From contig JALWBS010000005.1 in the NCBI GenBank assembly GCA_027037025.1, positions 1-48,610 of the forward strand: a DNA stretch of 48,610 nt, in the 5' to 3' direction. Made by a program: the position numbers and the translations under genes. Shown here piece after piece: positions 8,016-48,610 of this stretch; the first letter of the stretch is position 1, and each line of letters begins with the position of its first letter. This stretch comes from Desulfurococcales archaeon. Lineage in GTDB: Archaea > Thermoproteota > Thermoprotei_A > Sulfolobales > Ignisphaeraceae. A model generated the notes under the pieces. The model did not search any database and was not told the DNA's origin. It worked only from the letters and a program-made list of their open reading frames with translations.

Positions 8016-8016
8016 A

Positions 8017-9791: not shown

Positions 9792-9853
9792 GCCACCGAG
9801 AAGCTGAGGAAACAAGGAAACAAAAGGATTTATGTAATGTATCCTTCGTGCTT

Positions 9854-18066: not shown

Positions 18067-21000
18067 ATCAGCCTTAACCTCTCCCTCTGCACTCCAGCTC
18101 CTCCAAACCCAGCTCCTCCACCAGCACCTATTCCTAGGCTGGGTATAGCTATTTGCACAGTGATCGGCGCCTGTGCCTGCGGTGTGGTGCCAGCCGATCC
18201 GTACTTTGTTGGTGTCGGAGGTGGTGGGAGTACTGGAGTTGTTAGGTGGTATGGAACCGACGTTACTTTGGGCACGCTTATCGTTCCTATGCGCGGCACT
18301 ATCGATGTTGGTACCTGAATGTTTATCGGTGTTATTACGCCTACGTCCACGCCGTTGATGTTTATCTTCGGTATCCTTATCGTTAAGCCGTTCAGCGAGA
18401 TGTTGATCGTCCCAACGATTTTCGGCGCTAGCTTGCTCAGATCGCCGACCGCTATCACTATCGGTGTCGTTATCTGGGGTAGCTTAATTGCGAAGAGGGG
18501 GACGACGCCTATGTCCTTGAACGCCTCCGCGATCTCTGTGGGTAGGCTAGCTGGTTTTGCCATGGACACGATCTCTTCGAATTCCTGCGGAGAGATCATG
18601 AACTGTTCAGCGGCTCTCAACTCGCGTTCTCTCCACACCATCAGCGGGTAGATCATTGCTAGGAACGGTATTGCGTCTAGGAACCTCAGCGCGTATCTCA
18701 GAAGAGATGACACTCCGCGTCTTATCACAATGACTCTGCTAAGATCATCGAACTCCGGATCTATCTCCCTAATCACATCGATTGCTCTCTCGTGCGATAG
18801 CTCGTCGAAGATCTTTCTAAGATGCGGATCCCTCTCGATGACTCTCCTCAGCTTTGGATCGATCTCCACAGTAACGTCTCTGTACCAAGTGGCTTTCCTA
18901 CCTCTCCTAGCTATGATGTGGTTCCGTACCCTAATCTCTATGTATCCAGCGTTCGGTATCTCAACTCTCCAGATAAGCTCGGTTCCGTCTCTCAGCGGAA
19001 TCATTCTCCTCTTAACAACTATTCTCAGACCATCGATTGTTACTATCCTCGTGTCCCATCCCTTGAGTAGCTTCTCGACCTCGAACGCGATTGATTTCGG
19101 AGCCGCTATCATGGTTCCTTCGCGTACGGTTCCAACCTTCTCGATCACGATGTAGTTGTTCGGGATCTCCGGCTCTTCCTCAACGATTTTCTCAAGCCTT
19201 CTAGCGACGAGCGCTAGATCCTCCGCTAGATCTCGCGCAATGGCAAGTTCGAGCTTTCCGCTCTTGGTAAGCATCCTTATCCTATCTATAACGCTTCTGA
19301 GCCCAGCCAAGATCCTGTTCTTAGCCTCGATCGTTATCGGCACGTACCTGAGCTCGCTCTCTATACTTTCTAGCTCCCTCAGTAGCTTAGCGATCTCCGT
19401 CCTAGACACCGGTTCTCCCTTCCTCATCTTCTCAACGACGGTGTTCACAGCGTTCACTAGCTTCCCAACGACTTCCTTCAGCTCCGGCGAGACCTCTTCG
19501 AGCGATCTAACGGTTTCAGCATAGAACTTCACAACGTCTTCTAGGTTCTCGGTTATCGGCACGATCCTGCTCATAACCGTTCTAGACACCGAGATCTTCT
19601 TGGCTAGATCCTTGAGCGTTGATACGAGCGGGCTTCTGGATCCGAAGAGCTTCTCGGCGAGCGAAGCTAGTCGCATTATCTCTTCTCCGGTGAAGTACGT
19701 TGCTATTACGGGGCTCGCATTCGCTAGCTCTTCGAAGACCTTGTTCAAGGCATCCACCGTGACGATCTCTCCCTTCCTAAGCTTCTCTACGATGCTTCGA
19801 ATGGCGTTGAAGTCTATGTCTGGGCACACCTTCTTCAACTCCTTTTCTAGGGATAGAATCTTCTCCAAGTCCTTCGCTAGAGCCGACGCAAATATCTTCT
19901 CGGCTTCGCTTCCGCGAACAACGATGTTCTCTATCGTTCTGACTCGGGTGAGGAACGGTCGTAGCGGTTCTAGTGCTTTTGCCAGCGATTCTATGGATGA
20001 CTCCAGATCCTTGATAGCCTCTCTAAGCTTCGTGAATGCGAAGAGCTCGCGCTCGGTCTTCGAGGACAGCGCCTTGGCTAGCTCATTGATTGCCTCTACG
20101 TATCTACCTTCTTTAAGTAGTCGGAGAGCGTCTGGTGATAGTATCCGTAGCTCAACGGCTTTTCTGATAACCGAGGTGATTAGGGCTCTCAGAGGCTTTC
20201 TCTTAGCTACCTCAATTCCTTTCTCTAGCTCTTCGTACACCTTCCTCAGGTTCTCAACGGCTTTCTCGACTTCCTTGGCTTGCCTAAGCGATTTCCTAGC
20301 CTCGGAAAGGACTTGATCAACTATCTTCCTCAGCTCGGGGGGTAGGAACCCTAGGTGCTGAGCTAGCTCCTTCTCGGCTTCTTCCACGGATCTTATCAGC
20401 GATGTGACGTGACGGATCTCGAACGACGCCTTCTTAATCTCTTCGCTTGCAGACTTTACTTTTTCGAGCGTTTGCAGAACCTGCTTACGGATAAGAACGT
20501 TTTCGTGGCTCAGCGACCCCTCCATCTCTTTGAGAATCGATGATATTCTCTTCGATAGGTCTTCAATCGTTGAAACGGCGCTCTCGATCATTCCCTTGTA
20601 CTTAATAAGCTCGCTGAAGCTGTTCGAAATGCTCTTTATCACCGCTTCGGCGGCTTCGTTGCCTAGAATGTTTCTCAAGTCTGTGAGGCTCTTTATTCTG
20701 GAGCTCTTGGATATGAAGTCCAGTATAAGCGCTCGCTTAACGTCTTCGGTGAGCTTGATCCCTTCCTCTGCAAGGGCTTTGGTAAACGCTTTTCCTAGGT
20801 TCTTCTCAAGTTCTTCGCTTGGAAGCTCGTGGAATACCCTCGATATCTCTCCGGGTTTCGCCTCTATCGTAGCTCTCATAACTCTTGCAATGCTTCTCAC
20901 ACCGCTTTCGATGGCTACAGACAGTGGTGTGAATGGATCTCCCGTGAGTATCGACGATACTACCTCCGATAATCGGTATCCAAGACCTAGCCTGCTCAGT

Positions 21001-22544
21001 ACCTCGGGTAGTGCAAATCCTAGCAGGATCATGCCAGCGTTTTCGAGGGCTTCCATAGGTGTTCCAAACATTCCTTTCAAAGCGTTGGATAGCTCGGTCA
21101 CCGCACCGTTTATGTCTCCAACAACCACGTGGTTGTAGGCACGCGAAGCGATTTCGAACATCGATTTCAGAGCTTCGTAGACGTGTAGCGGAGAGATGCT
21201 ACTTAGCACGAGCGCGATCGCTCCAGCTCCCAGCTCCGCTATCGAGCCGATTATGGCTAGCGGTAGTCCCCACCACTCCTTGTTTATGTTTCTAATACCT
21301 GCTAAGAAAGCTAGCCTAGTTTGGTCAAGTAGCGAGTTGATCGCTCTCTGAATGTCTTCGTACCACACCTTTAGGGGGGAGCCCGTGTATGGGCTCTGGA
21401 TGGACATACCCGCTTTCCTAAGGTAGTCGATGAGAACGTCGTAGAACCTAGGATCGATCTTGCACGCTTCCATAACTACGTCGGCTAGCCTAGACTTTAT
21501 CAATGCGCTCATCTTCTCTATCGAATGAATCAGCTTCCTAAGACCTTCGACCAGCTTGGCATCGGTTATCGAGTTGAGCTCGGAGTACGACCAAGCAATG
21601 TCGTTCTCCAGACGGTTCCAAGCTTCGTCAAGCTTCTCAGCTGTTCTCTTGAGGAGATCGACGTAGTTGCGGTTACCGAGTACGTAGCCCTTGTTCGGAT
21701 TGTACTCGTTTATTACGTGGACTAGGTTCGCTACCCACTGCCACAGCTCCATCAAGTCGAATAGTAGCTTTGCATAGATCTCGGAGGCGATCTCCGCGTT
21801 TCTCAATCTTTGAAGCAAGGAGTTTGCGTATATATCAACAACTTTCTTAGCGAAGTCGCTGAGAGTAATGCCTTGCTGGCTAGATACTCTGGTTACATCG
21901 ATTAGTCCGTAGATCATGGAGTTCCTCCATTGCTCCACCTCGTTGATCAAGTCCCTTATCCTGCTAGGTACGTTAATCGCTAGGCTAACTAACATCGTCA
22001 AGTCATCCAGAGAATCGATGCTCGTGTTGTAGATGTTCATCATGCTCCTTAGCTTGGAGTTGATTTCCTTCGTTAGCTTCTTGTAGCTCTCAACAATGGT
22101 CTTCAGAACCGTGCTCCACCTAGCTAGGTCTCTAAGCGCGTTGGATACGGTGCAGTACTTTGTTTCCAGACCTAGGTCGGCGGCTATCCTATCTATCTTG
22201 TTCGCTAGGTCGTTCACTACGCTTGCGTTGTTAGCCACGTTTATGAGATCCTCAACGGTTTTCGCCTTAGAGAATATCTCCTTTGCGTACTTCAGCAAGC
22301 TACGTAGCTCCTCTAGCTTCCTTATCTTCTCAACGTAGCTCTCCGCCAATGGTGGTAGCAGATCGTTTGCTTCGAGCTCCTCAGCTATCTCTATCGCTTT
22401 GCGGAACTTCCCTTCGCTAACGAGCTTCTGAATTACGTATGCTCCTAGATACTCAAGCACCTCCTTGCGCCCCTGCTTAGGTAGAGATTCGATCATCGAG
22501 ACTAGCGGCGAGGGATCAAGCTTCGCGGCTTGCATCGTCTTCAT
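18063..22544 (-). CDS. giant coiled-coil / membrane-associated protein (1493 aa), putative virion or scaffold/tape-measure-like component
   Basis: 4.5-kb uninterrupted ORF with long charged helical stretches. Internal hydrophobic segments (WWGLPLAIIGSIAELGAGAIALVL; IPFLAMIYPLMVW) and a Pro/Gly-rich C-terminus. GGGGTGAG just upstream of the ATG. Confidence 0.85.
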   Translation of the reverse strand: MKTMQAAKLDPSPLVSMIESLPKQGRKEVLEYLGAYVIQKLVSEGKFRKAIEIAEELEANDLLPPLAESYVEKIRKLEELRSLLKYAKEIFSKAKTVEDLINVANNASVVNDLANKIDRIAADLGLETKYCTVSNALRDLARWSTVLKTIVESYKKLTKEINSKLRSMMNIYNTSIDSLDDLTMLVSLAINVPSRIRDLINEVEQWRNSMIYGLIDVTRVSSQQGITLSDFAKKVVDIYANSLLQRLRNAEIASEIYAKLLFDLMELWQWVANLVHVINEYNPNKGYVLGNRNYVDLLKRTAEKLDEAWNRLENDIAWSYSELNSITDAKLVEGLRKLIHSIEKMSALIKSRLADVVMEACKIDPRFYDVLIDYLRKAGMSIQSPYTGSPLKVWYEDIQRAINSLLDQTRLAFLAGIRNINKEWWGLPLAIIGSIAELGAGAIALVLSSISPLHVYEALKSMFEIASRAYNHVVVGDINGAVTELSNALKGMFGTPMEALENAGMILLGFALPEVLSRLGLGYRLSEVVSSILTGDPFTPLSVAIESGVRSIARVMRATIEAKPGEISRVFHELPSEELEKNLGKAFTKALAEEGIKLTEDVKRALILDFISKSSRIKSLTDLRNILGNEAAEAVIKSISNSFSELIKYKGMIESAVSTIEDLSKRISSILKEMEGSLSHENVLIRKQVLQTLEKVKSASEEIKKASFEIRHVTSLIRSVEEAEKELAQHLGFLPPELRKIVDQVLSEARKSLRQAKEVEKAVENLRKVYEELEKGIEVAKRKPLRALITSVIRKAVELRILSPDALRLLKEGRYVEAINELAKALSSKTERELFAFTKLREAIKDLESSIESLAKALEPLRPFLTRVRTIENIVVRGSEAEKIFASALAKDLEKILSLEKELKKVCPDIDFNAIRSIVEKLRKGEIVTVDALNKVFEELANASPVIATYFTGEEIMRLASLAEKLFGSRSPLVSTLKDLAKKISVSRTVMSRIVPITENLEDVVKFYAETVRSLEEVSPELKEVVGKLVNAVNTVVEKMRKGEPVSRTEIAKLLRELESIESELRYVPITIEAKNRILAGLRSVIDRIRMLTKSGKLELAIARDLAEDLALVARRLEKIVEEEPEIPNNYIVIEKVGTVREGTMIAAPKSIAFEVEKLLKGWDTRIVTIDGLRIVVKRRMIPLRDGTELIWRVEIPNAGYIEIRVRNHIIARRGRKATWYRDVTVEIDPKLRRVIERDPHLRKIFDELSHERAIDVIREIDPEFDDLSRVIVIRRGVSSLLRYALRFLDAIPFLAMIYPLMVWRERELRAAEQFMISPQEFEEIVSMAKPASLPTEIAEAFKDIGVVPLFAIKLPQITTPIVIAVGDLSKLAPKIVGTINISLNGLTIRIPKININGVDVGVITPINIQVPTSIVPRIGTISVPKVTSVPYHLTTPVLPPPPTPTKYGSAGTTPQAQAPITVQIAIPSLGIGAGGGAGFGGAGVQRERLRLI

Positions 22545-27831: not shown

Positions 27832-28518
27832 TCATCTCGTGAAGAACAGCATCATTATTCCTACGATTATGGCTATCGTCGATACGAATAGGCTGTTCGG
27901 CACCTCGAATCCTAGGTATGCGAATGCTGGTATCAGCGCTCCGTAGAGTATCAACCCTAGTGCGCACATCTTCACGCTTCCCCTCATGGCTAACCCTATT
28001 AGTATCGCTATCGGTAGCAAGGATATGAGCATCCTTATCTGAGCCGGTATATACGGTGTGAAAGGTATTTTCGGAACCTCTTCGTCTGCGAGCACCTCCC
28101 CGTTTCTTGCGTTCACCACCTTTACGCGCACAACCATGTAGGTACCAACGTCGAGATCTGCGTAGGCTCGGCAAAATCCGTAGCTCGGGAAGCAGATGGC
28201 TTGGAGATCCGTGAACGAAACCACTTGTTGCTGAGAGGTGTTCGGGTCGTACACGATCACGGTTGTTGGTATGCACTCCTCGCTGTAGTTAGACGTTGAA
28301 AATACGCAGAAGTACACGACTCTGAGAATAGACGAGTTGAGCCAGCCAACTCTTATCGTCGTAGCGTTGAAGTGGAGGACAACGGCTTGCCTAAAAGCTA
28401 CGTAGATCGTGCTGTTGGTTATGGTCACGGTCACGACCTGCGCGTAGACAAAGAGCGTGGCGAGCACGAGCGTCGCGGCAATCACTAGCAGTAGCGGAGC
28501 TAGCCGTACAGCCTCCAA
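27832..28518 (-). CDS. membrane glycoprotein-like protein
   Basis: Start re-called to TTG 28518 (MEAVRLAPLLLVIAATLVLATLF signal/anchor), overlapping the lectin-like gene end by 19 nt. Carries N-x-S/T sequons and C-terminal TM helices. The start is uncertain. Confidence 0.45.
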   Translation of the reverse strand: MEAVRLAPLLLVIAATLVLATLFVYAQVVTVTITNSTIYVAFRQAVVLHFNATTIRVGWLNSSILRVVYFCVFSTSNYSEECIPTTVIVYDPNTSQQQVVSFTDLQAICFPSYGFCRAYADLDVGTYMVVRVKVVNARNGEVLADEEVPKIPFTPYIPAQIRMLISLLPIAILIGLAMRGSVKMCALGLILYGALIPAFAYLGFEVPNSLFVSTIAIIVGIMMLFFTR

Positions 28519-31037
28519 AGCGTTATCCCCACAACGAACAGTATCGTGAACAAGACTAAAAATCCGAGTCCGAACCAAATCAAAGAGATTACGAGCATGA
28601 GCGCGGAGCTCACCGCAAGAGCTTTGTACCAAGGCTCTATCCTTGCATAGACAATGAATATCGCTAGGTATATGGCCAGCACAATTAAGCCCTCCGGACT
28701 GAAGAGCGATGGTTTTGAGAGTCTGAATATCGAGATCGCTACGGGTGACAACGTGATGTTTAGCGGGGACGTGTACGTTAGCGGAGGCGGTGTTATGGTC
28801 GTTGTCGTGGTTGGTGGTGGGGGAGGTGTGTATTTCTCTACGAATATGCATGGATCTATCCAATCCGTTGGGTAGGTGTAGCTATATATAGACGTGGAGT
28901 TTCCTATGATGCCCACGTGCGCAACTATCATTAGATCGACGTAGTAGGGATACCCACCGAATACATAGGCTGTGTCTAGGTTCGTCACTGGATCGCTATC
29001 TACGTACCTAGCCTCTCCGAGGAGCTTGTTACCAACGTCGTTCAGAACCGATGCCGATACATACGCTTTTCCGTTTCTGTAGCAAATCTCTAGCCTAGCT
29101 TGGTACCACATCTTCACCGGGTTGATTCCGAGGTTCGTGCTAGCAACGAGTGCACCGCCGTAGTTGCTCCTCTTATCGATGCCCACAATGGGAGGAGATC
29201 CGTGACCCACGGCGATTCCGTAGCCGTACCCGCTCGAATTCACCAATCCTATCCTATCGAAGTACGCTGTCGATGTTACGTTCCTCTCCATCCACGCAAT
29301 CATTTCGTAGCAACCGACGGGCGGCAAAGTGTTTCCAAGGCTCTTAACGCCTCCGTTAGGATCTGGATATTGGTCTTTCTTCAGCGAGAACTCTCCTTCG
29401 AACGCGGTTTCATTGCTCTGCTCAACTACTCCAGATCCGTGCTGTGTCCAGCCGCTCCAAGTCTCGAACGTGTCTATCAATCCTCCGTAGCTCGACGAGA
29501 AGTTTATCACTACGGTCGAAGAGTTGCCGCTCACGTTCATCCATACGTAGTACACGCCGCTGTAGCTAATCGTAGCGTTGAAGAGTAGCAACGGTTTGTG
29601 AACCTCTACGAAGCCCGGTACGTATAGTGGCATGCCTACCCCGACGATTCCTCCCGTAGCGTTGAGGAGGTATATCGGCGCGCTGAAGTTCTTTGCTTCT
29701 TCGAGCGAGAGTATGTCGTTGTATACCTCCGAAGGGATCTCTACCGTGAACAAGCCCTGTGCTTCGGTAGCGTTGAGATCGATGATTATCGGTAGCTCGT
29801 ATACACCAACGTTCTTCGTCTTAAGCGATCCGTAGTACACGAATAGGTAGTGATAACCAGCGGTTACGTTGCTCGGCACATAGAATGCGACCACAAGCGT
29901 GTAGTTGGGAAAGACGTAGACCGCTCCATCGATGTGCATATCGTCTAGTGCTAGCCACACCGATCCGTTGCCCTCGATATCCTTCGCGTAGCCTGTTCTT
30001 ACGACAACCATTTGCCAACCGCTACTCTTTATCAACACGAGTATTGGGAAGCGGTAACGATACGACGTGTTCAGCCATGGAAACCTATCCGGCGCTAGAA
30101 TAACCGTGCCGTTAGGATAGCTAATTAGGTAGCACGCGTTTGGAGCGAGTGCGTAGTAGCTAGGAGATACGCTGTAGTTCAGCTGGTTGAAGCTTCCTCG
30201 CGTTGTTGAAACCGATTGCTTTATCGAGTAGCTAAACACGTTGAAGCTACCGATCGTATGCGACGTGCTTTGGATGAACGAGATCGATAAAACGTTGAAG
30301 CTACCCTTAGACGATGAGAAGCTAGGTACTATGGATATGGTGGTGTTTTGAATTACTAGAGGCATCGAAACGCTGTTCTGAACCGTGAAGTACCGAACCT
30401 CGAATTCATCAGCGGATCCACTAGTAGCTCCAGAGATAAACACGCCGTAGCCGTAGATCGTCAGCGAGCCGCTGTAGCTCAAAACAAGTTCTCCATCTAC
30501 GTACACCTCCACCGAGGTGTTAGACACTATAATCGTGCAGTTGTGCCACGTATTGGGTGTGAACGCGAAGGAGACGCTCGTGTTGTACACCACGTGCTTC
30601 GAAACCGATGCGTTTATCAACGCTATGTGGGGAGCCGACGGATCAAACGAGTTCTGATACTCATCGAACTCGATGCCCCACGCAGGAGAGTTACCGAAGC
30701 CCAGCTGACCACCTCCTAACCCAGATAGCGAAGGTAGCTTAGCTAGATCGGCGAAGAAACCAATTACAAAACCATCGGCTCTCTGACCATCAGTATCAAC
30801 GATTCTGTACTGAAACGAAATAACGAAACTACTGTTCTCCGGCAACCATATAAACGGAATAGCTCTACCAACGCTCCACGCACGCTCGTAGGTCAACGTA
30901 ATAGCATCGTCAGCCGGAACATACCTAGCATCGCCCTCCAACCACCAACCACTAAACGAAAACCAGCTACTACTAGCAAGCAAGCTAAGTACAGCAATAG
31001 ATAGCAACACGACGGAGAGAACAAAGAACTTACGCAT
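28500..31037 (-). CDS. secreted/anchored L-type lectin (ConA-like) domain glycoprotein (845 aa)
   Basis: Signal/anchor MRKFFVLSVVLLSIAVLSLLA. ADGFVIGFF...GGGQLGF...WGIEFDEYQNSFDPSAPHIALINASVS matches the legume-lectin signature. Many N-x-S/T sequons, a PPPPPTTTTTITPPP linker and C-terminal TM helices. Confidence 0.8.
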   Translation of the reverse strand: MRKFFVLSVVLLSIAVLSLLASSSWFSFSGWWLEGDARYVPADDAITLTYERAWSVGRAIPFIWLPENSSFVISFQYRIVDTDGQRADGFVIGFFADLAKLPSLSGLGGGQLGFGNSPAWGIEFDEYQNSFDPSAPHIALINASVSKHVVYNTSVSFAFTPNTWHNCTIIVSNTSVEVYVDGELVLSYSGSLTIYGYGVFISGATSGSADEFEVRYFTVQNSVSMPLVIQNTTISIVPSFSSSKGSFNVLSISFIQSTSHTIGSFNVFSYSIKQSVSTTRGSFNQLNYSVSPSYYALAPNACYLISYPNGTVILAPDRFPWLNTSYRYRFPILVLIKSSGWQMVVVRTGYAKDIEGNGSVWLALDDMHIDGAVYVFPNYTLVVAFYVPSNVTAGYHYLFVYYGSLKTKNVGVYELPIIIDLNATEAQGLFTVEIPSEVYNDILSLEEAKNFSAPIYLLNATGGIVGVGMPLYVPGFVEVHKPLLLFNATISYSGVYYVWMNVSGNSSTVVINFSSSYGGLIDTFETWSGWTQHGSGVVEQSNETAFEGEFSLKKDQYPDPNGGVKSLGNTLPPVGCYEMIAWMERNVTSTAYFDRIGLVNSSGYGYGIAVGHGSPPIVGIDKRSNYGGALVASTNLGINPVKMWYQARLEICYRNGKAYVSASVLNDVGNKLLGEARYVDSDPVTNLDTAYVFGGYPYYVDLMIVAHVGIIGNSTSIYSYTYPTDWIDPCIFVEKYTPPPPPTTTTTITPPPLTYTSPLNITLSPVAISIFRLSKPSLFSPEGLIVLAIYLAIFIVYARIEPWYKALAVSSALMLVISLIWFGLGFLVLFTILFVVGITLWRLYG
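30172..30335 (-). repeat. in-frame 3 x 54-bp tandem repeat inside the lectin-like gene (approximate bounds)
   Basis: gttgaagct recurs at 30186, 30240 and 30294 (period 54). It encodes KGSFNVLSISFIQSTSHT / IGSFNVFSYSIKQSVSTT / RGSFNQLNYSVSPSYYAL. Confidence 0.7.
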
Positions 31038-32875: not shown

Positions 32876-33311
32876 GCGCTTCTGTGAGTACCTAGTTCTT
32901 CGAGCGCTGAGCGACGAGAAGGAGTTCGTGGAGGTTATGTGTGCCGTCCTAGTATGCGGCGCGGGATCGAAGAGGTCGTGCAGATCCCTCCACGACTACA
33001 AGAGGTGGCAAAGAGCTACCGCGCTAGCCTCGCTGGGTAGAAGGCTTGTGGAGAGATACGGTATGGATACGATGATCAAGCTACTCAGCTCCATACTCAT
33101 GCTAGAGCCCATAGTTGTTAAAAGAGGTAGGAGCAGGCTGTGCAAGATATGCGGTAGATACCTTAGGAGGGGAGACGGTCACCTAATGGAGAAGCACATG
33201 TCTGCGGTGAAGGAAGCCGTTGATAGGGTTCTCCAGATAGCGCTCGACCCAAGCACCGTGACCCCCAACGCGTGTCTATCGGTGTGCAGATTCCTAGAGC
33301 TAGCTCCCTAG
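32853..33311 (+). CDS. C2H2 zinc-finger protein, third paralog of the HTH/ZnF family
   Basis: FCEYLVLRALSDEKEFVEVM and LEPIVVKRGRSRLCKICGRYL...HLMEKH align with 2958..3452. ATG 32853 (ORF-track GTG 32844). Overlaps the Cas4-like gene end. Confidence 0.6.
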   Translation: MEMDEDLRRFCEYLVLRALSDEKEFVEVMCAVLVCGAGSKRSCRSLHDYKRWQRATALASLGRRLVERYGMDTMIKLLSSILMLEPIVVKRGRSRLCKICGRYLRRGDGHLMEKHMSAVKEAVDRVLQIALDPSTVTPNACLSVCRFLELAP

Positions 33312-34145
33312 CTTAGCGGTTTGCAGACATAGATGAACGATTCTCTCGATGTCTTCCTTGGTGAAGGACTCGATGGGCTTGTTCACCACTGCTAGGAATC
33401 CGTTGGGGTGTAGGAACACCACTTCGTACGCCTCCCTCAGCTTGGATAGGTCTATCCTTGGGTAGAGCGGCGAGAACTGGTTCTTTATAACCGATGTTTG
33501 CCTCGGGTTCCTAGTGTTCGGCGCTATGAGTATATCCGCTCCGCTCACCTCGAACACCACGTTCATCGGAACCTTTCTCGGATCCACCGTGGTTAGCGCA
33601 ACCCTAACGTCGTCGATTGTGAACACCTTCGTCTTCCTGCTCGCCTCGAAGTACGCGTTCACCAAGTTGCTGAAGTTCTCGCCCACCTCCCTAGATGGCT
33701 CGGTGAGCATCGTCGGTATCAAGAGCATTTCCAGCCCAACGGGATCAACGATGCCGAACCTCTCGTCAGCCGCCTTCACCCCGAACCTATCCCTGTAATC
33801 GATGTACTCCAGAAGCTTGCGTAGCCTAGGAACGTTCATCGCCTTCTCGTATAGATCCGGGAACTCTCCCTTCAGCACGAGTATCAGCGAGCACGGCAAG
33901 TCAATTGATTGGTGATGATCGTAGAACACCGCAGGCACACCACCTACGCTACCCTCACCGAGCCTCCCACCAACATCGACGACAATTACCTTCTCCGGCT
34001 TCAGCTCCTCAACAACCCTCTCAAGCTCTCGAAGGTTCCTAACCGTCACAACCCTAGAATCCGGATACTTCCAGAGCAGTAGGGATACAGCTAGGTAGTC
34101 ATCTAGGTGCCTAGGCTTTGGATGTGTAGCTATGAGCACGACCAT
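33300..34145 (-). CDS. MYG1/UPF0160-like (DHH-type) metal-dependent exonuclease/phosphoesterase
   Basis: IATHPKPRHLDDYLAVSLLL ... VIVVDVGG ... FYDHHQ reproduces the MYG1-family motif order. Confidence 0.65.
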   Translation of the reverse strand: MVVLIATHPKPRHLDDYLAVSLLLWKYPDSRVVTVRNLRELERVVEELKPEKVIVVDVGGRLGEGSVGGVPAVFYDHHQSIDLPCSLILVLKGEFPDLYEKAMNVPRLRKLLEYIDYRDRFGVKAADERFGIVDPVGLEMLLIPTMLTEPSREVGENFSNLVNAYFEASRKTKVFTIDDVRVALTTVDPRKVPMNVVFEVSGADILIAPNTRNPRQTSVIKNQFSPLYPRIDLSKLREAYEVVFLHPNGFLAVVNKPIESFTKEDIERIVHLCLQTAKLGS

Positions 34146-42832: not shown

Positions 42833-42837
42833 GTGAA

Positions 42838-42853
42838 CCCCCGTGAGAAAAAG
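42838..42853 (-). promoter_or_regulatory. cassette leader motif copy
   Basis: Minus strand: CTTTTTCTCACGGGGG-ttcac-ATG(42832). The 24 nt at 42830..42853 are identical to 48272..48295. Confidence 0.8.
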
Positions 42854-43912: not shown

Positions 43913-44350
43913 CTATGGTTTGGGTAGGTCTAGACCTGTGAGCGTGGGTAGATCCACGAGTGTCTTCATCCAATCCGGGTAGTTGTCTTGGTACTCGAAC
44001 CGCTTACCGGTTTCCGTCGATGCTACCACGATCCTGTCATGACCAGCCGACTTCGAGTACTCGTAGATCACCGTAACGATATCGAATATTCCTTCACCGA
44101 TGATTCTAAGGACTAGCGCCTCGGCAATTCTTAGGAACTCAAGAGCTTTATCAACGTACTTAGCCTCGATGTATGCTATGCCATGATCGAACTCTATTCT
44201 ATCCGGATCCACTTGAACATCGTTGTACAGCAAATTGACGAGATTGTCTAGTACCGGCAATACATGGATTTCAATCCTAGTCCTTGTGTAACACACATTC
44301 ATATCGGATGTACACCAAAATACTCCCTCATCCGGTTCCGTCGCAACCAT
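43913..44350 (-). CDS. hypothetical protein (145 aa)
   Basis: ATG 44350, 5 nt downstream of leader motif 44356..44369. The ORF-track GTG extension to 44401 reads through the motif. Confidence 0.6.
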   Translation of the reverse strand: MVATEPDEGVFWCTSDMNVCYTRTRIEIHVLPVLDNLVNLLYNDVQVDPDRIEFDHGIAYIEAKYVDKALEFLRIAEALVLRIIGEGIFDIVTVIYEYSKSAGHDRIVVASTETGKRFEYQDNYPDWMKTLVDLPTLTGLDLPKP

Positions 44351-44355
44351 GTATA

Positions 44356-44369
44356 CCCCCGTGGAAAAC
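44356..44369 (-). promoter_or_regulatory. cassette leader motif copy
   Basis: Minus strand: GTTTTCCACGGGGG-tatac-ATG(44350). Confidence 0.7.
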
Positions 44370-44372
44370 GTT

Positions 44373-44786
44373 TTACCATACGGAGTACGGGATTTCACCA
44401 CAAGTTTCTTTCACGAGCATTCTCACGTATCCATAGGACATTAAGTACCGCGCCATCGACGCCAACATCATTTCGCATAGATGCTCGTTCTTCAGTAACC
44501 ACTCAATGATCTCAGTACATCGTCGAAGAACCGTGGCTGGAGGAAAACTCCTTCTAAACTCAATACAACACTTATGCACACCATTCTCTATCCTTATACG
44601 TATCAGAGCCAACGACATCTCGACAACGTTCTTTGGATATTCAACGAGTGATATCCTCGATGTCACCTTCTCAATTCTACAAGGCTCAGCAGATTTTACA
44701 ATGCCATTCTCTTCGATTAGCACAATCACTTTCACAAGCTCGTTCTCGCTTTCAACATGCCTAAACACATAGGTAGAGCTACCCAT
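44373..44786 (-). CDS. hypothetical protein (137 aa)
   Basis: ATG 44786, 8 nt downstream of leader motif 44795..44808. Confidence 0.55.
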   Translation of the reverse strand: MGSSTYVFRHVESENELVKVIVLIEENGIVKSAEPCRIEKVTSRISLVEYPKNVVEMSLALIRIRIENGVHKCCIEFRRSFPPATVLRRCTEIIEWLLKNEHLCEMMLASMARYLMSYGYVRMLVKETCGEIPYSVW

Positions 44787-44794
44787 TTTATTCA

Positions 44795-44808
44795 CCCCGT
44801 GGAAAAAG
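44795..44808 (-). promoter_or_regulatory. cassette leader motif copy
   Basis: Minus strand: CTTTTTCCACGGGG-tgaataaa-ATG(44786). Confidence 0.7.
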
Positions 44809-44815
44809 AATGTGT

Positions 44816-45445
44816 TTATCGAGGCTCTTTCTCGAAGGTGAAGCTAGCACACTTGAACACTCCATGAGCGTTGCACACGTAGTTACAGTAATAGAGATGT
44901 TCGTATATACACACATCGTCTAGGCACAGCTCGATCGTTCCGACACCGCTGTTGAAATCGAAGTCCTTGTAGTCCTTGGAGAAGTTCACTCCCCACGCCT
45001 CTCCAATAACGACAAATGGATAGGCATCTCCGCCACGGCTAGACTTTGCAAAGGCATCGATTCCGCACGACTCTAGGTATCGAGCAACTAATCTGAGTAG
45101 AATCGAATCATCTTCGAGGCTCAGACTAGCGATCGCATCAGTAAGCTTACCATCGCTCTTCACAACCTTTGGAACGATGAAGTACACCGATCCATGACCG
45201 TCGTATAGCTCGATAACCGCGAGATCCGTCTTCTCCTCAATCAATTTCCATAGCTCAGATACGTAGTTCCTGAGCTCGTCGTACATCTCATCGCTTAGAT
45301 CGTACTTCTCCCTCATCTCATCGAGTACGCCGTAAATCCCTTCATCGCTTAGAACCAGCGTTCTCCCACGAATCATGTTCTTCAGAATTTCCTTCGCGAA
45401 CTCGTATTTCAAATCGGTTGATTGAGATACAACTATTTGACTCAT
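44816..45445 (-). CDS. hypothetical protein (209 aa)
   Basis: ATG 45445, 6 nt downstream of leader motif 45452..45471. The ORF-track extension to 45544 is Cys/Ser-rich and overlaps the small TM ORF in another frame. Confidence 0.6.
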   Translation of the reverse strand: MSQIVVSQSTDLKYEFAKEILKNMIRGRTLVLSDEGIYGVLDEMREKYDLSDEMYDELRNYVSELWKLIEEKTDLAVIELYDGHGSVYFIVPKVVKSDGKLTDAIASLSLEDDSILLRLVARYLESCGIDAFAKSSRGGDAYPFVVIGEAWGVNFSKDYKDFDFNSGVGTIELCLDDVCIYEHLYYCNYVCNAHGVFKCASFTFEKEPR

Positions 45446-45451
45446 GTCAAA

Positions 45452-45471
45452 CCCCCGTGATCCATAAAAAC
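45452..45471 (-). promoter_or_regulatory. cassette leader motif copy (insert variant)
   Basis: Minus strand: GTTTTTATGGATCACGGGGG-tttgac-ATG(45445). Confidence 0.65.
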
Positions 45472-45638
45472 TAGCATCGACGTAGCTTGACACACTCCAC
45501 GAATATGCATAGAAACATTGTGAACAGCACAACGATGCCGCCAATCAACATGTATAGAGCCGCATCGACACCAATAACAAGACTAATGAGCAGAGCGATG
45601 ATGATGAGCACCACCGTAGCTAGAACAACGCTCCTCAT
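45471..45638 (-). CDS. small membrane protein (55 aa, MRSVVLATVVLIIIALLISLVIGVDAALYMLIGGIVVLFTMFLCIFVECVKLRRC), not in ORF track
   Basis: Hand-translated. The ATG overlaps the TGA stop of 45635..45913 (ATGA). Two hydrophobic helices. Its stop lies inside the next leader motif. Confidence 0.5.
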   Translation of the reverse strand: MRSVVLATVVLIIIALLISLVIGVDAALYMLIGGIVVLFTMFLCIFVECVKLRRC

Positions 45639-45913
45639 CCTCCCCTCCCCTTGAGATTTTCAAGTATTATTTTCCACCACATGCATGGGTGTTCTATCCA
45701 TATCCACCACCACTTGATCCAAAACGCTAAGTCATCGAGATCCCTACGTTGCTTCGGATCGTACCACACCTCCTTGGCATGTATATACGTGAAGATCTCT
45801 AACCACCATTGAATGCTATCGAAGAAAAGCACCGTTCGAGGAACGTGATATCCACGAGAGCGTTTTTCGAGCAATAAACGCCATGGATCAAAAGGTGTCC
45901 TTATAATCTCCAT
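45635..45913 (-). CDS. Trp-rich small protein ending in GRGG (92 aa)
   Basis: ATG 45913, 5 nt downstream of leader motif 45919..45931. Contains FWIKWWWIWIEHPCMWWKII and has the C-terminus LKGRGG. Confidence 0.55.
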   Translation of the reverse strand: MEIIRTPFDPWRLLLEKRSRGYHVPRTVLFFDSIQWWLEIFTYIHAKEVWYDPKQRRDLDDLAFWIKWWWIWIEHPCMWWKIILENLKGRGG

Positions 45914-45918
45914 TCTAA

Positions 45919-45931
45919 CCCCCGTGAAAAA
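45919..45931 (-). promoter_or_regulatory. cassette leader motif copy
   Basis: Minus strand: TTTTTCACGGGGG-ttaga-ATG(45913). Confidence 0.8.
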
Positions 45932-45935
45932 TGAG

Positions 45936-46496
45936 TTATGATATGTAGAGAAGTGTAGATGGACGAAGGGTTTGTAGTGGTGGCGGCGGAACAATCACGT
46001 CGCGGTGCGGTGATAGAGCGGCGATGGGGATGGATAGCATGCGATAGTCTAGATTAAACAACATGTATACTATCGGAATCACCTTGTCATTTATGGTCTT
46101 GCGAAACTCGATGCCAAACATGCCGATTAGCTTGAAGATGGCGTCGATCTCGTTGAACGCTACAAGATACTCACCAATCAACTCAGCAATTTTGCGCAGA
46201 GCCTCTTCAAGTTCACGCTGATAAACGCTCGTTATGATATACACCATGGACGAATACTCCCTTTCAACTGTTTTCTGAATCATGACGATAAGTTCGCTAC
46301 ATTGCTTCAACACAACATAGCTAATCGTTATTTTATAGATTCGCAATGTTCCATGTGGAACAACGATCGATAATGAGCATTTGCGATCACTGCAATAATG
46401 ATCGACATAGCCAACGTATGTCGAAACCTCATGGATTTTCTCGAAGTAATTACATAGCTGTGAAAACACGTTATACAATGGATCCAGAGGTTTCAT
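45936..46496 (-). CDS. hypothetical protein (186 aa)
   Basis: ATG 46496, 5 nt downstream of leader motif 46502..46515. Confidence 0.6.
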   Translation of the reverse strand: MKPLDPLYNVFSQLCNYFEKIHEVSTYVGYVDHYCSDRKCSLSIVVPHGTLRIYKITISYVVLKQCSELIVMIQKTVEREYSSMVYIITSVYQRELEEALRKIAELIGEYLVAFNEIDAIFKLIGMFGIEFRKTINDKVIPIVYMLFNLDYRMLSIPIAALSPHRDVIVPPPPLQTLRPSTLLYIS

Positions 46497-46501
46497 AAAC
46501 A

Positions 46502-46515
46502 CCCCCGTGAAAAAG
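46502..46515 (-). promoter_or_regulatory. cassette leader motif copy
   Basis: Minus strand: CTTTTTCACGGGGG-tgttt-ATG(46496). Confidence 0.8.
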
Positions 46516-46580
46516 AATGCAATTCAACGCTATTAAATAAAAATAAAATTTGTTTTGGATGGAAAGAGGATTTAGAGATG

Positions 46581-46853
46581 TTATCCGGCGATATCGAGCT
46601 TTTCAACACGGATAGTAATATTCTCGTTTCTCGATCTTAACTCGTTGATCTTCTGCTCGAAGTCCATCGGACTAACAGGGTTGTCATTTACGAACACACG
46701 TATCTTGCTCCAACCCTTGGATCTAGCAATTTCAATGATTTTCTGCTTTATTTCGCTAGGACTCATCCCTCGAATGCTGATCTCTTCATTTTCTACTACT
46801 AGTTTTTCAGACGGTGTTATGTTCCAAGTTTGTTCTACATTCCATTCACTCAT
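46581..46853 (-). CDS. small protein with beta-grasp (ThiS/MoaD/ubiquitin-like) sequence pattern and C-terminal Gly (90 aa)
   Basis: ATG 46853, 8 nt downstream of leader motif 46862..46874. ...KLVVENEEISIRGMSPSEIKQKIIEIARSKGWSKIRVFVNDNPVSP...NENITIRVEKLDIAG ends exactly at Gly. Confidence 0.55.
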   Translation of the reverse strand: MSEWNVEQTWNITPSEKLVVENEEISIRGMSPSEIKQKIIEIARSKGWSKIRVFVNDNPVSPMDFEQKINELRSRNENITIRVEKLDIAG

Positions 46854-46861
46854 ACCCCACA

Positions 46862-46874
46862 CCCCCGTGAAAAA
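46862..46874 (-). promoter_or_regulatory. cassette leader motif copy
   Basis: Minus strand: TTTTTCACGGGGG-tgtggggt-ATG(46853). Confidence 0.8.
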
Positions 46875-46884
46875 TAATAGAGTG

Positions 46885-47082
46885 TTAATCGATTTGTTTT
46901 AGTGCATCGAGAATTTGGCGATGCACTTCATGAGATATCGGTACCTCGATCTCCTTCGATGGTAGTACAATAACTAGTTTGCTGGATACAATGCGAATTA
47001 TTGGATAGTTACCGTTGCACGCCGGCATTAATACCAGTTCACCATGTTTATTATCGATACACAAGCCGTACTTGCATTTCAT
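46885..47082 (-). CDS. hypothetical small protein (65 aa)
   Basis: ATG 5 nt downstream of leader motif 47088..47100. Confidence 0.5.
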   Translation of the reverse strand: MKCKYGLCIDNKHGELVLMPACNGNYPIIRIVSSKLVIVLPSKEIEVPISHEVHRQILDALKQID

Positions 47083-47087
47083 ACAAA

Positions 47088-47100
47088 CCCCGTGGAATAG
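47088..47100 (-). promoter_or_regulatory. cassette leader motif copy (T-run degenerate)
   Basis: Minus strand: CTATTCCACGGGG-tttgt-ATG(47082). Confidence 0.6.
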
Positions 47101-47113
47101 GCAACGAGCGGGG

Positions 47114-47134
47114 TATACATATAATATATGTATA
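47114..47134. promoter_or_regulatory. perfect 21-bp palindrome TATACATATAATATATGTATA flanked by G runs (TATA candidate)
   Basis: Arms at 47114..47123 and 47125..47134 are exact reverse complements. Lies about 35-50 nt upstream of ATG 47082. Confidence 0.45.
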
Positions 47135-47183
47135 GGGGGTGAATCGTTTGGTTGGAACCTAACTAGAATAAAGGGATTGAATT

Positions 47184-47197
47184 CCCGTGAAGAAAAA
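47184..47197 (-). promoter_or_regulatory. orphan cassette leader motif copy (no ORF behind it)
   Basis: Minus strand: TTTTTCTTCACGGG-aattcaatcc... No ATG follows. Lies 4 nt after the stop of the E2-like gene. Confidence 0.55.
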
Positions 47198-47200
47198 TGG

Positions 47201-48274
47201 TTAGAAATCGATGCATTTGTCTATGCTCACACCATCATCGTACAGATCGTTGAAGATTTCTGGAGTGTACGCCGATGTCGATGGTATCGATAGTATCTTC
47301 ACGATCTTGTCAATTATTGACCTTAGCACATCAGTGGTTAGTCTATCGTAAGACTTAAGAATTTCTCGCTCCGCAGATCCTAGACACACTATACCATCGT
47401 CACTTATGTTCGGATGATAATACTCCTTATCCTTGTACAGAAGGAAAGCGTCGCCTTTCACCTCTACTAGCGAGTAATGTTTCTCCGATATGTTGAATAC
47501 TAATGTTATTGTTTTTACCACTACCTTGATCGGTGGCACGGCTACTAAGCATCCCCTTCTATGGTTAGCGATGACATTCGTTTCTATCTCCTTCTCGATG
47601 CTGAACGTGATGATGAGCCTATCTTCCTCGGTTCTGATCTCCTCAATATTCAACTCTTTCGGAGATAAATCTATTGGTGGTATGGACGTTATGTACAATG
47701 GTAGATACCTCAGCTCATTCAAATATTCGAACGACAATCTTCTCAGCTCAAAGCGCTTGGTGATATCCGCTCCTAGAACCTTCAGCTTCAGCATCTTCAT
47801 AGCATTGACCGCAAATAACCATAGTGATGGCACTTTGTTATGCGTTATGTCGGATATCACAAAGGTGTTGCGCTTAGGATCGTAGCACATATATTCGGTA
47901 CAATAACCATGTTTTGTTCGCATATCGGTTGTGCACGGATGCCCTTCGTTGAAGATCCTAAGTATCTTATCGATATCGAATTCATCTTCTATTCTATGTT
48001 CGTAGATGTCGGTGCGAATGCCGTCAATGTAGCAGTATATCAGAACAGCGTTTCGCGGTATTTCTTTTAGCTCGCCGTGATTTATCACATACTTAATTCC
48101 TAGTTCTTTCAATTCCTTGGCGAACATCTCCACAAAGATTCTAGAATATTCGTAATCGGTGTGCACTATGCCATTGGTTGTTATTATGTCTTCGCAATCT
48201 ACACACATCTTCCTTAGATACTCAACATCATCAGTATTAGTATCAGAATGAGTTTGGATTATCCATTCGGACAT
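47201..48274 (-). CDS. two-domain protein with C-terminal E2/UBC-like (ubiquitin-conjugating enzyme fold) domain (357 aa)
   Basis: ATG 48274, 5 nt downstream of leader motif 48280..48295. KEYYHPNISDDGIVCLG (His codon 47414..47416, Cys codon 47384..47386), then TTDVLRSIIDKIVKILSIPSTSAYTPEIFNDLY, parallels the UBC core YHPNIxxxGxICL...vlxSIxxLLxxPNxxxPxxxEiaxxy. A KRFELRRLSFEYLNEL helix lies at the domain start. Confidence 0.7.
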   Translation of the reverse strand: MSEWIIQTHSDTNTDDVEYLRKMCVDCEDIITTNGIVHTDYEYSRIFVEMFAKELKELGIKYVINHGELKEIPRNAVLIYCYIDGIRTDIYEHRIEDEFDIDKILRIFNEGHPCTTDMRTKHGYCTEYMCYDPKRNTFVISDITHNKVPSLWLFAVNAMKMLKLKVLGADITKRFELRRLSFEYLNELRYLPLYITSIPPIDLSPKELNIEEIRTEEDRLIITFSIEKEIETNVIANHRRGCLVAVPPIKVVVKTITLVFNISEKHYSLVEVKGDAFLLYKDKEYYHPNISDDGIVCLGSAEREILKSYDRLTTDVLRSIIDKIVKILSIPSTSAYTPEIFNDLYDDGVSIDKCIDF

Positions 48275-48610
48275 GTGAACCCCCGTGAGAAAAAGATAGG
48301 ATGTCGGATAGATTGAACACATGGTTCAATCTAAACGATCGGTATAGTGATATCATTAGATAGACAATTATCGAAGCCGCGAGAATAGCGGTAGCATCAT
48401 CATCGATCTTGCGATCGATAACCACGATCATGTAATTGCCGCGATCATATACACGCTTAACCTTCTCAACATCGCTTTTAGATACTAAGAATAACTTTAT
48501 CGATGGTCTGAACTCGCTGAACATCGCTAGTAGCAAATCCACATCATTGGTAATAACCACATCGATTTTGAACGGTCGCAACAACGATAGGTATTCATAG
48601 AATTGGTGAT
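48243..48610 (-). CDS. hypothetical protein, 5' end open at window edge
   Basis: The frame is open from 48608 downward (HQFYEYLSLLRPFKIDVVITNDVDLL...). The ORF-track TTG 48584 is only the first possible start. The 3' end reads through leader motif 48280..48295. Confidence 0.4.
   Translation of the reverse strand, partial: HQFYEYLSLLRPFKIDVVITNDVDLLLAMFSEFRPSIKLFLVSKSDVEKVKRVYDRGNYMIVVIDRKIDDDATAILAASIIVYLMISLYRSFRLNHVFNLSDILSFSHGGSHVRMDNPNSF
48280..48295 (-). promoter_or_regulatory. cassette leader motif copy
   Basis: Minus strand: CTTTTTCTCACGGGGG-ttcac-ATG(48274). Confidence 0.8.

Follow-up and report, generated by a model that had tools for sequence, protein, structure and literature searches.

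A divergent E2-like gene in a putative ubiquitin-like conjugation module of a probable hyperthermophilic archaeal virus

This work describes an E2-like gene near one end of a 48,610-nucleotide stretch of DNA, contig JALWBS010000005.1 of GenBank assembly GCA_027037025.1, which is filed under a Desulfurococcales archaeon; the whole stretch was analyzed and is referred to here as the window. The product of the gene, designated P0001, combines an N-terminal domain specific to its family with a C-terminal domain that carries the His-Pro-Asn (HPN) motif and the downstream Cys of ubiquitin-conjugating (E2, or UBC) enzymes. Judged by sequence comparison, homology to E2 enzymes extends over the catalytic half of the fold, the catalytic residues are invariant within the family, and the gene is linked in a conserved manner to genes for a ThiF-type E1, a JAMM/JAB peptidase, and a small protein. 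We consider it likely that P0001 is a genuine E2 homolog that works in a module for conjugation of a ubiquitin-like protein (Ubl).

The E2-like gene

The E2-like gene is read from the minus strand (Table 1). Its translation contains the peptide KEYYHPNISDDGIVCLGSAE, which carries both the HPN motif and the Cys, with N289 and C297 separated by 8 residues, the same spacing as in UBE2D2. Translation thus bears out the open reading frame (ORF), the positions of the motif and of the Cys, and the Asn-Cys spacing that had been given in a preliminary description made from the DNA letters alone. The lower GC content of the gene noted there from hand counts (~42% versus ~53%) also holds: the value is 0.410, versus 0.496 in the 7-44 kb core of the window. 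Both ends of the window are low in GC, with arms of 0.430 and 0.428 flanking the core.

Two features place the start of the gene at ATG 48274. A GGGGGT Shine-Dalgarno-like element lies 4 nt upstream, inside a leader motif that recurs in the window, and the N terminus of the seven homologs described below, M-[ST]-W, coincides with this start. On both grounds, a longer reading from ATG 48322 is unlikely.

Table 1. Features of the window and gene orders of related modules (Ubl, E1, E2, and JAB denote candidate or predicted functions)
Feature	Position	Strand	Details
E2-like gene (protein P0001)	47201..48274	minus	357 aa plus stop; ORF and translation
Codons of H287-P288-N289, the E2 HPN motif	47408..47416	minus	H287, 47414..47416; N289, 47408..47410
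C297 codon (TGT), predicted thioester-forming catalytic Cys	47384..47386	minus	aligned to the E2 catalytic Cys
C-terminal UBC-like domain, ~residues 205-357	47204..47662	minus	four long beta-strands, HPN loop, Cys, short helix, helices 2 and 3
N-terminal family-specific domain, ~residues 1-165	47780..48274	minus	conserved motifs LKxLGIKYV and N136..DITH
Leader motif TTTTTCTCACGGGGGT	48279..48294	minus	16 nt; contains GGGGGT; 4 nt upstream of E2 ATG 48274
Apparently decayed ThiF/E1-like gene	48243..48610, cut by window end	minus	3' part, 121 codons of 184 aa; 3' end overlaps E2 start
65-aa ORF between E2 and Ubl genes	46885..47082	minus	module membership uncertain
Candidate Ubl modifier	46581..46853	minus	90 aa from ATG 46853 (93 aa if GTG 46862); ends ...VEKLDIAG-stop
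Low-GC arm	1..7000		GC 0.430
Low-GC arm	44001..48610		GC 0.428
Class II CCA-adding enzyme	8379..9815	minus	478 aa
CDC48-type AAA ATPase	15811..17262	minus	483 aa
Coiled-coil, tape-measure-like protein	18063..22544	minus	1493 aa
Protein with N-terminal legume-lectin/LamG domain	28500..31037	minus	845 aa
Protein matching MYG1 exonuclease/UPF0160 N terminus	33300..34145	minus	281 aa
Module order, L001			JAB-E1-E2
Module order, L006			Ubl-E1-E2-JAB
Module order, L008			E2-JAB-E1-Ubl
Module order, L010 and L011			Ubl-E2-E1-JAB
Module order, L096			Ubl-E2-E1-JAB

Homology to E2 enzymes

Six-frame translation of the window yields a single match to the pattern HPNx(6-8)C, versus 0.235 matches expected from residue shuffles. 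The motif alone is therefore not beyond chance, and the case for an E2 rests on the homologs, namely, on residue conservation and on profile matches.

An exhaustive phmmer search of 1.84 billion representative proteins retrieved seven homologs of P0001, with E values from 1.6e-17 to 5.6e-4 and, in the family alignment, 21 to 26% identity to P0001. With seven homologs among that many representatives, the family is rare; word-indexed searches returned P0001 itself and one homolog (P0007) alone, and a search of 5.8 billion proteins gave P0001 alone. In the C-terminal half, the sole residues invariant in all eight family members are H287, P288, N289, C297, and G299, so the HPN..C residues, whose conservation the preliminary description had named as a point to check, prove to be shared by the whole family (8/8). 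When three more distant relatives are added (11 sequences), H287 and C297 stay invariant (11/11), N289 is kept in 10 of the 11, and G299 is nearly invariant. The E2-like proteins of the distant relatives keep the His and the Cys, and the middle of the motif varies (HPN, HVN, HPH, HIN, and HYH).

Profile comparisons point in the same direction. Pfam UQ_con (PF00179) matches four of the eight family members, the best being P0003 at 27.2 bits versus a gathering score of 27, over profile positions 69-134 of 140; two further members score 18.5 to 19 bits. When the family profile was compared to all PDB sequences, the best 60 of 89 matches were all E2 enzymes, with UBE2F at the top (E = 0.0095). Comparison to a canonical E2 profile with hhalign gave a probability of 95.8% (E = 7e-9) for the C-terminal half of the family alignment and 94.5% (E = 8e-8) for the 11-sequence, full-length alignment. 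The reference profile for this comparison was made from canonical E2 sequences and was validated against the PDB, where it matches UBE2D2 and others at 1e-69. The hhalign alignment covers 60 to 61 columns, comprising the HPN loop, the Cys, helix 2, and helix 3, and the region of P0001 aligned to E2s is residues 283-348. It is the invariance of HPN..C among the homologs, together with these profile matches to E2s, that makes the motif significant. On these sequence grounds, P0001 is a real but very divergent relative of eukaryotic E2 enzymes. The eukaryote-like UBC catalytic domain proposed in the preliminary description is thereby supported by UQ_con, by the PDB profile search, and by hhalign (94-96%), and the similarity that was said to continue past the motif into helix 2 and the following loop in fact reaches helix 3.

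A structure prediction with AlphaFold2 (AF2) in the absence of an alignment gave a predicted local distance difference test score (pLDDT) of 38; the model used here was built with the eight-sequence family alignment. In this model, block-mean pLDDT is mostly 81 to 95 in the core of the C-terminal domain (residues 221-330), ~61 to 71 at the start of the domain, and 59 to 82 toward the C terminus, and the N-terminal 200 residues are poorly modeled. Strands are predicted at residues 210-216, 219-237, 242-262, and 267-280, followed by the HPN motif, the Cys, and helices at 299-305 (short), 314-328 (long), and 339-346. This order of elements is consistent with a UBC core lacking helix 4. Compared to canonical E2s, helix 4 is absent from the model, helix 1 is not identifiable, and the strands are unusually long. 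The peptide KRFELRRLSFEYLNEL, which had been taken for an N-terminal helix opening the domain, falls in a poorly conserved stretch with a pLDDT of 33 to 36, and that assignment is not retained.

For the N-terminal domain, the eight-sequence alignment reveals two conserved elements, LKxLGIKYV (with K56, L58, and G59) and N136..DITH. The domain has no sequence match in Pfam, PHROG, PADLOC, NCBIfam, or the PDB, and AF2 confidence is moderate to low. It had been described as Cys rich, yet its six cysteines are not conserved in the homologs, where the invariant residues are K56, L58, G59, and N136. A conserved, Cys-rich, zinc (metal)-binding domain was therefore rejected.

Linkage to E1, JAB, and small-protein genes

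Loci are designated here by numbers with the prefix L. The sequence of the window recurs without change in L002 and L003, which belong to two other assemblies made from a different sample or run, and the L002 contig extends 552 nt past the window end. From this extension we read the full length and the upstream neighbor of the E1-like gene that the window end cuts. The resulting 184-aa protein has no Pfam match; against a hidden Markov model (HMM) built from four syntenic ThiF proteins only, it scores 14.7 bits (E = 8e-7, as a single comparison). The window copy reads GIVSTKRTK where GxGGVG is expected and YLSLLR in place of NMNRL. As far as its sequence tells, the protein is a decayed E1 that has retained its homology.

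A fragment of a JAB gene lies just beyond the window end in L002 and precedes the E1-like gene. It encodes the JAMM motif HxHx7SxxD as HKHPSGISSFSATD, and the same motif is conserved in the JAMM proteins of L001, L006, and L008; Pfam Prok-JAB matches to these proteins are sub-threshold (E = 0.032 for the L002 gene fragment and 0.097). The candidate Ubl gene follows downstream of the E2-like gene, and its product is homologous to small proteins of the L006, L007, L008, L010, L011, L090, and L096 modules, of which the L008 protein has a weak Pfam match to ThiS (E = 0.077). The gene order is thus JAB (outside the window), decayed E1, E2, 65-aa ORF, and Ubl. The 65-aa ORF has no family matches, and no counterpart was recognized in the other loci. 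The window holds no second copy of an E1, E2, JAB, or Ubl gene, and a family scan of the neighbors found neither a RING E3 nor ubiquitin proper near the E2-like gene. The earlier statement that no E1 or JAB is recognizable is literally correct for the window, but a decayed ThiF-like gene is cut at its end and a JAMM gene lies just beyond it. Rather than being a lone gene, the E2-like gene is part of a Ubl-E1-E2-JAB module that is conserved across loci.

In L001, L006, L007, L008, L010, L011, L090, L094, L096, and L097, ThiF adjoins the E2-like gene. The E1s of these modules are 200 to 240 aa in length and consist of a single ThiF domain without a conserved Cys. They share YDG..TI and gY..PS motifs, and the absence of the Cys is reminiscent of the Cys-less Bub E1 with its tyrosine intermediate. 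The same modules contain a JAMM/JAB peptidase with HxHx7SxxD (~9 loci) and a small protein of 80 to 93 aa with a C-terminal ...AG in most copies. The locus of P0004, on a contig of the NCBI metagenome-assembled genome (MAG) GCA_027028325.1, has the order small protein, ThiF, E2-like protein, and JAMM protein; that of P0005 has small protein, ThiF, and E2-like protein; and that of P0006 has E2-like protein, JAMM protein, ThiF (Pfam, 3.2e-16), and an 83-aa protein ending in DVAG-stop. Ubl, E2, JAB, and E1 genes are co-located in several loci, with the content kept and the order shuffled (Table 1), and this retention of content under a changing order argues for functional linkage.

P0007 is encoded on a 75-kb JGI contig (L001), directly after ThiF (Pfam, 5.4e-15) and a 212-aa JAMM protein with HKHPSGLRDFSGID. 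P0008, another E2-like paralog, is encoded two genes downstream of P0007. These tandem paralogs occupy positions 2072..5171 of L001, and each is followed by a further protein, of 141 or 188 aa. The two followers have similar C-terminal stretches (...RRMLRNPKPSERALARLFNSYP and ...KRMLSSPRRIERALGRLLAKYP), and the pairs suggest duplication of an E2-plus-partner unit.

Wider relatives of the four-gene set were found by searching public collections with ThiF and JAMM alignments. They lie on low-GC contigs: L010 (a Sulfurovum MAG contig), L011, L090, L094, L096, and L097. Against genomes, the ThiF alignment retrieved mostly ordinary MoeB/TcdA-type genes of Proteobacteria, and only L010 and L011 carried the module. 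Related modules are not restricted to archaeal viruses: L010, L011, L090, and the other low-GC relatives are probably bacterial phages, in which case the module crosses the domain boundary. On L090 (IMGVR_UViG_3300033143_004581, an IMG/VR viral contig of 67 kb with a GC content of 0.26), genes for a Ubl, a 284-aa E2-like protein, ThiF, and JAB span positions 4004..8729. The E2-like protein of L090 has H-Y-H...C-W-G in place of HPN...CLG, and this HYH..CWG variant is also found in L096 and L097. The L090 module directly follows what looks, from its translation, like an RFC-like clamp-loader-type gene, and a 244-aa ORF comes next.

The small proteins end in AG-stop in four of six aligned copies (window, L008, L011, and L090). 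In two loci, AG is followed by 1 to 3 residues, namely, in L096 (1545..1811, AG-ICK) and L094 (2749..3120, AG-F). Exceptions to AG are the L006 protein, which ends in SA, and the L010 protein (4511..4753), which ends in NAAKF. The extended forms (AG-ICK, AG-F, and NAAKF) look like Ubl precursors that would need trimming by JAB.

The element that carries the module

The window is probably part of a virus of a hyperthermophilic archaeon, a reading supported by its CDC48-type AAA ATPase. The best match of this protein in the phage collection is Hyperthermophilic Archaeal Virus 2 (1e-47), with further matches to the Sulfolobales viruses YNP1/2, Acidianus tailed spindle virus (ATSV), STSV3, and ATV. 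These matches also support the archaeal virus-like element of the preliminary description, and the ATPase is the only clear link of the window to any described virus. The window further encodes a tape-measure-like coiled-coil protein, with sub-threshold DUF948, ApoLp-III, and tail-chaperone matches only, the lectin-domain protein listed in Table 1, and a tail-fiber-like protein. No capsid, portal, or terminase gene was recognized anywhere in the window. Searches of the phage collection with megablast and tblastn gave no match for the region, the E2-like protein, the lectin protein, or a 594-aa ORF; the window as a whole has no DNA-level match in that collection, and the same is true of most of its proteins. 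It contains no tRNAs, and a Pfam search of ten further ORFs revealed no host-domain markers. A circular form of the window was rejected, as the L002 sequence past position 48610 does not run into position 1.

The leader motif upstream of the E2-like gene has 11 matches in the window versus 0.37 expected, and 10 of these are on the minus strand, between positions 37613 and 48294. Two exact copies were checked, and each lies just before a start: the one before ATG 48274 and another at 42837..42852, before an ORF start at 42832. From its sequence and placement, the motif looks like a shared leader, either ribosome binding or promoter proximal, of one transcription class.

Two other genes of the window deserve mention. 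The CCA-adding enzyme is of class II, the bacterial/eukaryotic type, with a PolyA_pol head, RNA-binding domains, and HD domains (E = 1e-35). As the CCA-adding enzymes of archaea are normally of class I, a class II enzyme is unexpected in an archaeal-virus-like element. The 281-aa protein matches the N terminus of MYG1 exonuclease/UPF0160 with E = 1.7e-5 and 25.0 bits versus a cutoff of 22.1.

Sample labels on the contigs of the homologs (JOHN19-1 and SPET22-1) resemble those of deep-sea vent studies, from which we presume that the contigs come; this is a reading of the labels and not the result of a tool. A preprint of 2026 that deals with Thermococcales viruses found in vent metagenomes reports head-tailed and other families, lectins, and genomes with a "core plus variable region," and neither its text nor its supplement mentions ubiquitin, ThiF, or JAB. 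In the literature searched, no description of E2, JAB, or Ubl genes in Thermococcales or ANME-1 viruses was found.

Comparison to known systems

Among prokaryotic Ubl systems, the Bil operons (BilABCD, "ISG15-like") are anti-phage operons that encode a Ubl with a C-terminal Gly, an E2 that is proposed to pick the target, a JAB, and an E1 (PMC11601596). The class 6d Ubl-JAB-E1-E2 operons first predicted by Iyer, Burroughs, and Aravind in 2006 (PMC1779556) are now known as Bil. The module described here has in common with them a candidate Ubl, a Cys-containing E2 encoded by a separate gene, a JAB, an E1, and the lack of an E3. The E1s differ, in that BilD has the architecture IAD-AAD-CYS (PMC11601596) whereas the module E1 is the small, single-domain, Cys-less ThiF protein described above. 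Class 6d E2-like proteins are without the His of the HPN motif (PMC1779556), whereas the P0001 family keeps the eukaryote-type H-P-N; P0001 also carries an extra N-terminal domain of ~165 aa that is not part of Bil/6d E2s. Moreover, Bil/6d operons reside on cellular genomes and the module on viral contigs. No PADLOC or NCBIfam model matches the module E2, JAB, or Ubl, with the coverage of Bil in PADLOC 2.0 being uncertain.

The Bub (6E/DUF6527) operons consist of a small Ubl, an E1 without a catalytic Cys, an E2 with an invariant Ser, and a JAB, with JAB-E1 fusions (PMC11601596). They resemble the module in gene set and in the missing E1 Cys. They differ from it in the Ser of the E2, the JAB-E1 fusions, and DUF6527, whereas the Cys of the module E2 is invariant and the module genes are separate. 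Family scans of the module neighbors examined gave no DUF6527 match. Type II CBASS likewise has a JAB partner, and the best PADLOC scores of the module E1s are with the E1 part of Cap2 models (down to 6e-15). Cap2 is, however, an E2-E1 fusion, whereas the module has neither a fusion nor a CD-NTase and includes a free Ubl, and its E2 and JAB match no Cap2 or Cap3 model.

Canonical E2s (eukaryotic, Caldiarchaeum, and Asgard enzymes, represented by UQ_con) share with P0001 the HPN motif, the Cys at +8, the succession of helix 2, loop, and helix 3, and, in the AF2 model, the strand-then-helix order. They differ in that only their catalytic half aligns to P0001, which has longer predicted strands, no helix 4, and the extra N-terminal domain. 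The SAMP/UbaA and Urm1 systems combine a ThiF/MoeB-type E1 and a JAMM protease with a small, ThiS/MoaD-like protein that has a Gly at its C terminus, and in this they resemble the set predicted for the module. Archaeal sampylation of the SAMP/UbaA and Urm1 type works without an E2, however, whereas the HPN-Cys E2 is integral to the module. Among viruses, the Asgard "Nidhogg" viruses were reported to carry ThiF/E1-like genes only, which were interpreted as a means of interacting with ubiquitin-like systems and proposed to hijack host E2 and Ubl (Rambo et al., bioRxiv 10.1101/2021.07.29.454249). E1-like genes of archaeal viruses are common to both cases, but in the present one, genes for the E2, Ubl, and JAB come with the virus lineage as well. 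No description of such a virus-borne Ubl-E1-E2-JAB module was found in the literature searched, the coverage of which was incomplete. The module is apparently an undescribed variant of the prokaryotic Ubl-E1-E2-JAB operons of the Bil/6d type, being virus borne and having an HPN E2 with an extra domain and a small Cys-less E1.

Proposed mechanism and role

From the sequence comparisons, we infer a scheme that includes a Ubl fold for the small protein and thioester chemistry at the E2. The small protein ending in Ala-Gly would be the Ubl, and the small, single-domain, ThiF-type E1 would adenylate its C-terminal Gly. The Ubl would then be taken onto Cys297 of the E2 as a thioester, and the E2 would pass it to a target lysine, with the Asn of the HPN motif stabilizing the transition state. 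The JAMM/JAB metalloprotease would trim Ubl precursors, remove conjugates, or both. Because the module E1s have no conserved Cys, the E2 may receive the Ubl straight from the adenylate or by way of a non-Cys intermediate, as in Bub. As no E3 is seen, we propose that target selection falls to the N-terminal domain of the E2, which would bind the target or a partner, by analogy with what has been proposed for Bil E2s.

In the virus of the window, where the E1 motifs are lost, the E2 may depend on a host E1-like enzyme for its charging, in which case the decayed E1 might serve as an adaptor, or it may belong to a module that is being lost. The intact motifs of the E2, Ubl, and JAB tend to favor use of a host E1 over decay of the module. 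Dependence on a host E1 had already been suggested in the preliminary description and may apply, on a different ground: the element does have an E1 of its own, but a decayed one. The other suggestion made there, that the protein acts as a decoy or inhibitor, is disfavored by the invariant catalytic Cys and His.

As to purpose, it appears most likely that the module, encoded in an accessory and fast-evolving arm of the genome, modifies proteins of the host or of competing viruses. A role in conflict would fit its location in an arm whose genes have a leader in common, its patchy occurrence, and the duplication of E2 paralogs. Confidence in any specific biological role, be it host manipulation, virion modification, or Bil-like exclusion of competitors, is low. 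In its fullest form, which we put forward tentatively and with more doubt than conviction, the proposal is that viruses of hyperthermophilic vent archaea and their sister low-GC phages own a complete, undescribed Ubl cascade. Its HPN-Cys E2 would have a built-in target-recognition domain, and with its minimal Cys-less E1, the Ubl would move from the adenylate straight onto the Cys of the E2 or, as in Bub, by way of a Tyr. The E1 of the window would be a pseudo-enzyme that recruits a host E1, giving a hybrid cascade that tags proteins of the host or of rival viruses.

Alternative explanations

Several results weigh against the assignment of P0001 and its neighbors to a working Ubl cascade. P0001 itself scores 14.8 bits against UQ_con (E = 0.022, residues 283-333), short of the gathering score of 27, and has an E value of 0.25 for Pfam Prok-E2_D; single-sequence searches gave nothing above threshold in Pfam, PHROGs, the PDB (phmmer), PADLOC, or NCBIfam. 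The similarity to E2s is limited to ~60 residues, and none of the methods extended it to the N-terminal half of the fold, where helix 1 and the sheet would lie. A Foldseek search of the PDB with the eight-sequence AF2 model returned no match with E < 0.001 and no E2; the top ranks were taken by unrelated folds and by the Knl1 RWD domain, of the UBC-like superfamily, with a probability of 0.23. Against BFVD, the model gave one unnamed match and no interpretable UBC match. Thus, of the profile and structure searches by which the preliminary description would have judged the UBC assignment, the profile part was positive (UQ_con, PDB, and hhalign) and the structure part gave no significant UBC match. 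The score below the Pfam threshold, the Foldseek outcome, and a bare motif expected 0.24 times in the six-frame translation speak for a coincidental HPN...C in an unrelated fold. We nevertheless regard a chance motif in a protein unrelated to E2s as extremely improbable, since HPN..C is invariant among homologs with only ~21-26% overall identity, the similarity runs 50 residues past the motif into helices 2 and 3, the best 60 of 89 PDB profile matches are all E2s, and genes for E1, JAB, and a Gly-terminated small protein recur beside it in locus after locus. The Ubl and JAB are candidates, assigned by motifs, size, position, and sub-threshold Pfam matches (E = 0.03-0.1). The JAB family profile has no match in the PDB, and neither a PDB profile search nor hhalign against ThiS/MoaD/SAMP and Ub/NEDD8/SUMO sequences supported a beta-grasp fold for the Ubl family. 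The ThiF-like protein and the ...AG protein might instead form a ThiS/MoaD-type thiocarboxylate relay, for example in tRNA thiolation or cofactor synthesis, in which the HPN-Cys protein would be the partner for persulfide or sulfur transfer. In NCBIfam and Pfam, the E1s indeed match ThiF/MoeB adenylyltransferases best, the only weak match of the small protein is ThiS, the E1 lacks a conserved Cys, and the virus also encodes a tRNA CCA-adding enzyme. However, a JAB isopeptidase and a UBC-type HPN-Cys enzyme are typical of conjugation and not of sulfur transfer, the neighborhoods of the modules showed no genes for a rhodanese, a cysteine desulfurase, or a thiazole/molybdopterin synthase, and the E1 matches are all far below equivalog cutoffs, which makes sulfur transfer very unlikely.

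The state of the E1 in the window bears on whether the cascade works there. In an alignment with 10 intact E1s, the 184-aa protein is seen to have lost the glycine-rich GxGGxG loop, NxNR, a ~35-residue segment with the conserved Asp residues (D..D), and gY..PS, and with these motifs lost, the cascade may no longer work in this virus. The module would then be a decaying remnant, its E2, Ubl, and JAB either being lost or kept for a non-conjugating role, e.g., binding. All of the missing elements are kept in the 10 other E1s, and the window offers no second E1, E2, JAB, or Ubl copy. We judge decay to be rather unlikely even so: all four ORFs are intact; the invariant residues of the E2, the terminal AG of the Ubl, and the HxHx7SxxD of the JAB are all kept; the sequence is identical in L002 and L003, from a different sample or run; and archaeal hosts carry ThiF/MoeB/UbaA-type E1s that could substitute. 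A further alternative concerns the purpose of the module and not its biochemistry. As a viral counterpart of Bil, it might serve superinfection exclusion or defense by conjugating the Ubl to structural proteins of competitors, or to host factors that these need, and thereby block assembly, with the N-terminal domain of the E2 recognizing the foreign protein. Such a role would suit the setting of the gene, a low-GC terminal arm whose many small, unannotated genes have a leader motif in common, and a module that is patchy, rapidly diverging, and shuffled in order, with E2 paralogs in L001, as expected for arms-race genes. The E2, JAB, and Ubl match no PADLOC defense model, however, the E1 architecture is unlike that of BilD, the E1 copy of the window is decayed, and the data are equally compatible with a virus that modifies host proteins to its own advantage. 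Exclusion of competitors is thus possible but doubtful.

Implications

To date, conjugation of Ubls in prokaryotes has been regarded as a cellular matter: Bil, Bub, and type II CBASS defend the host, and the Caldiarchaeum and Asgard cascades are taken as cellular forerunners of the eukaryotic system. The module described here is predicted to have the canonical HPN-Cys E2 chemistry that is mostly missing from bacterial E2-like proteins. If the assignment is true, prokaryotic viruses would use Ubl tagging as a weapon or tool, like eukaryotic viruses, and a mobile vehicle would be added to scenarios for the spread of E2s between bacteria, archaea, and early eukaryotes. A minimal Cys-less E1 combined with an E2 that has an in-built domain would make a compact, probably thermostable, and reconstitutable system, and the decayed E1 of the window would provide a natural test of the feeding of a viral E2 by a host E1.

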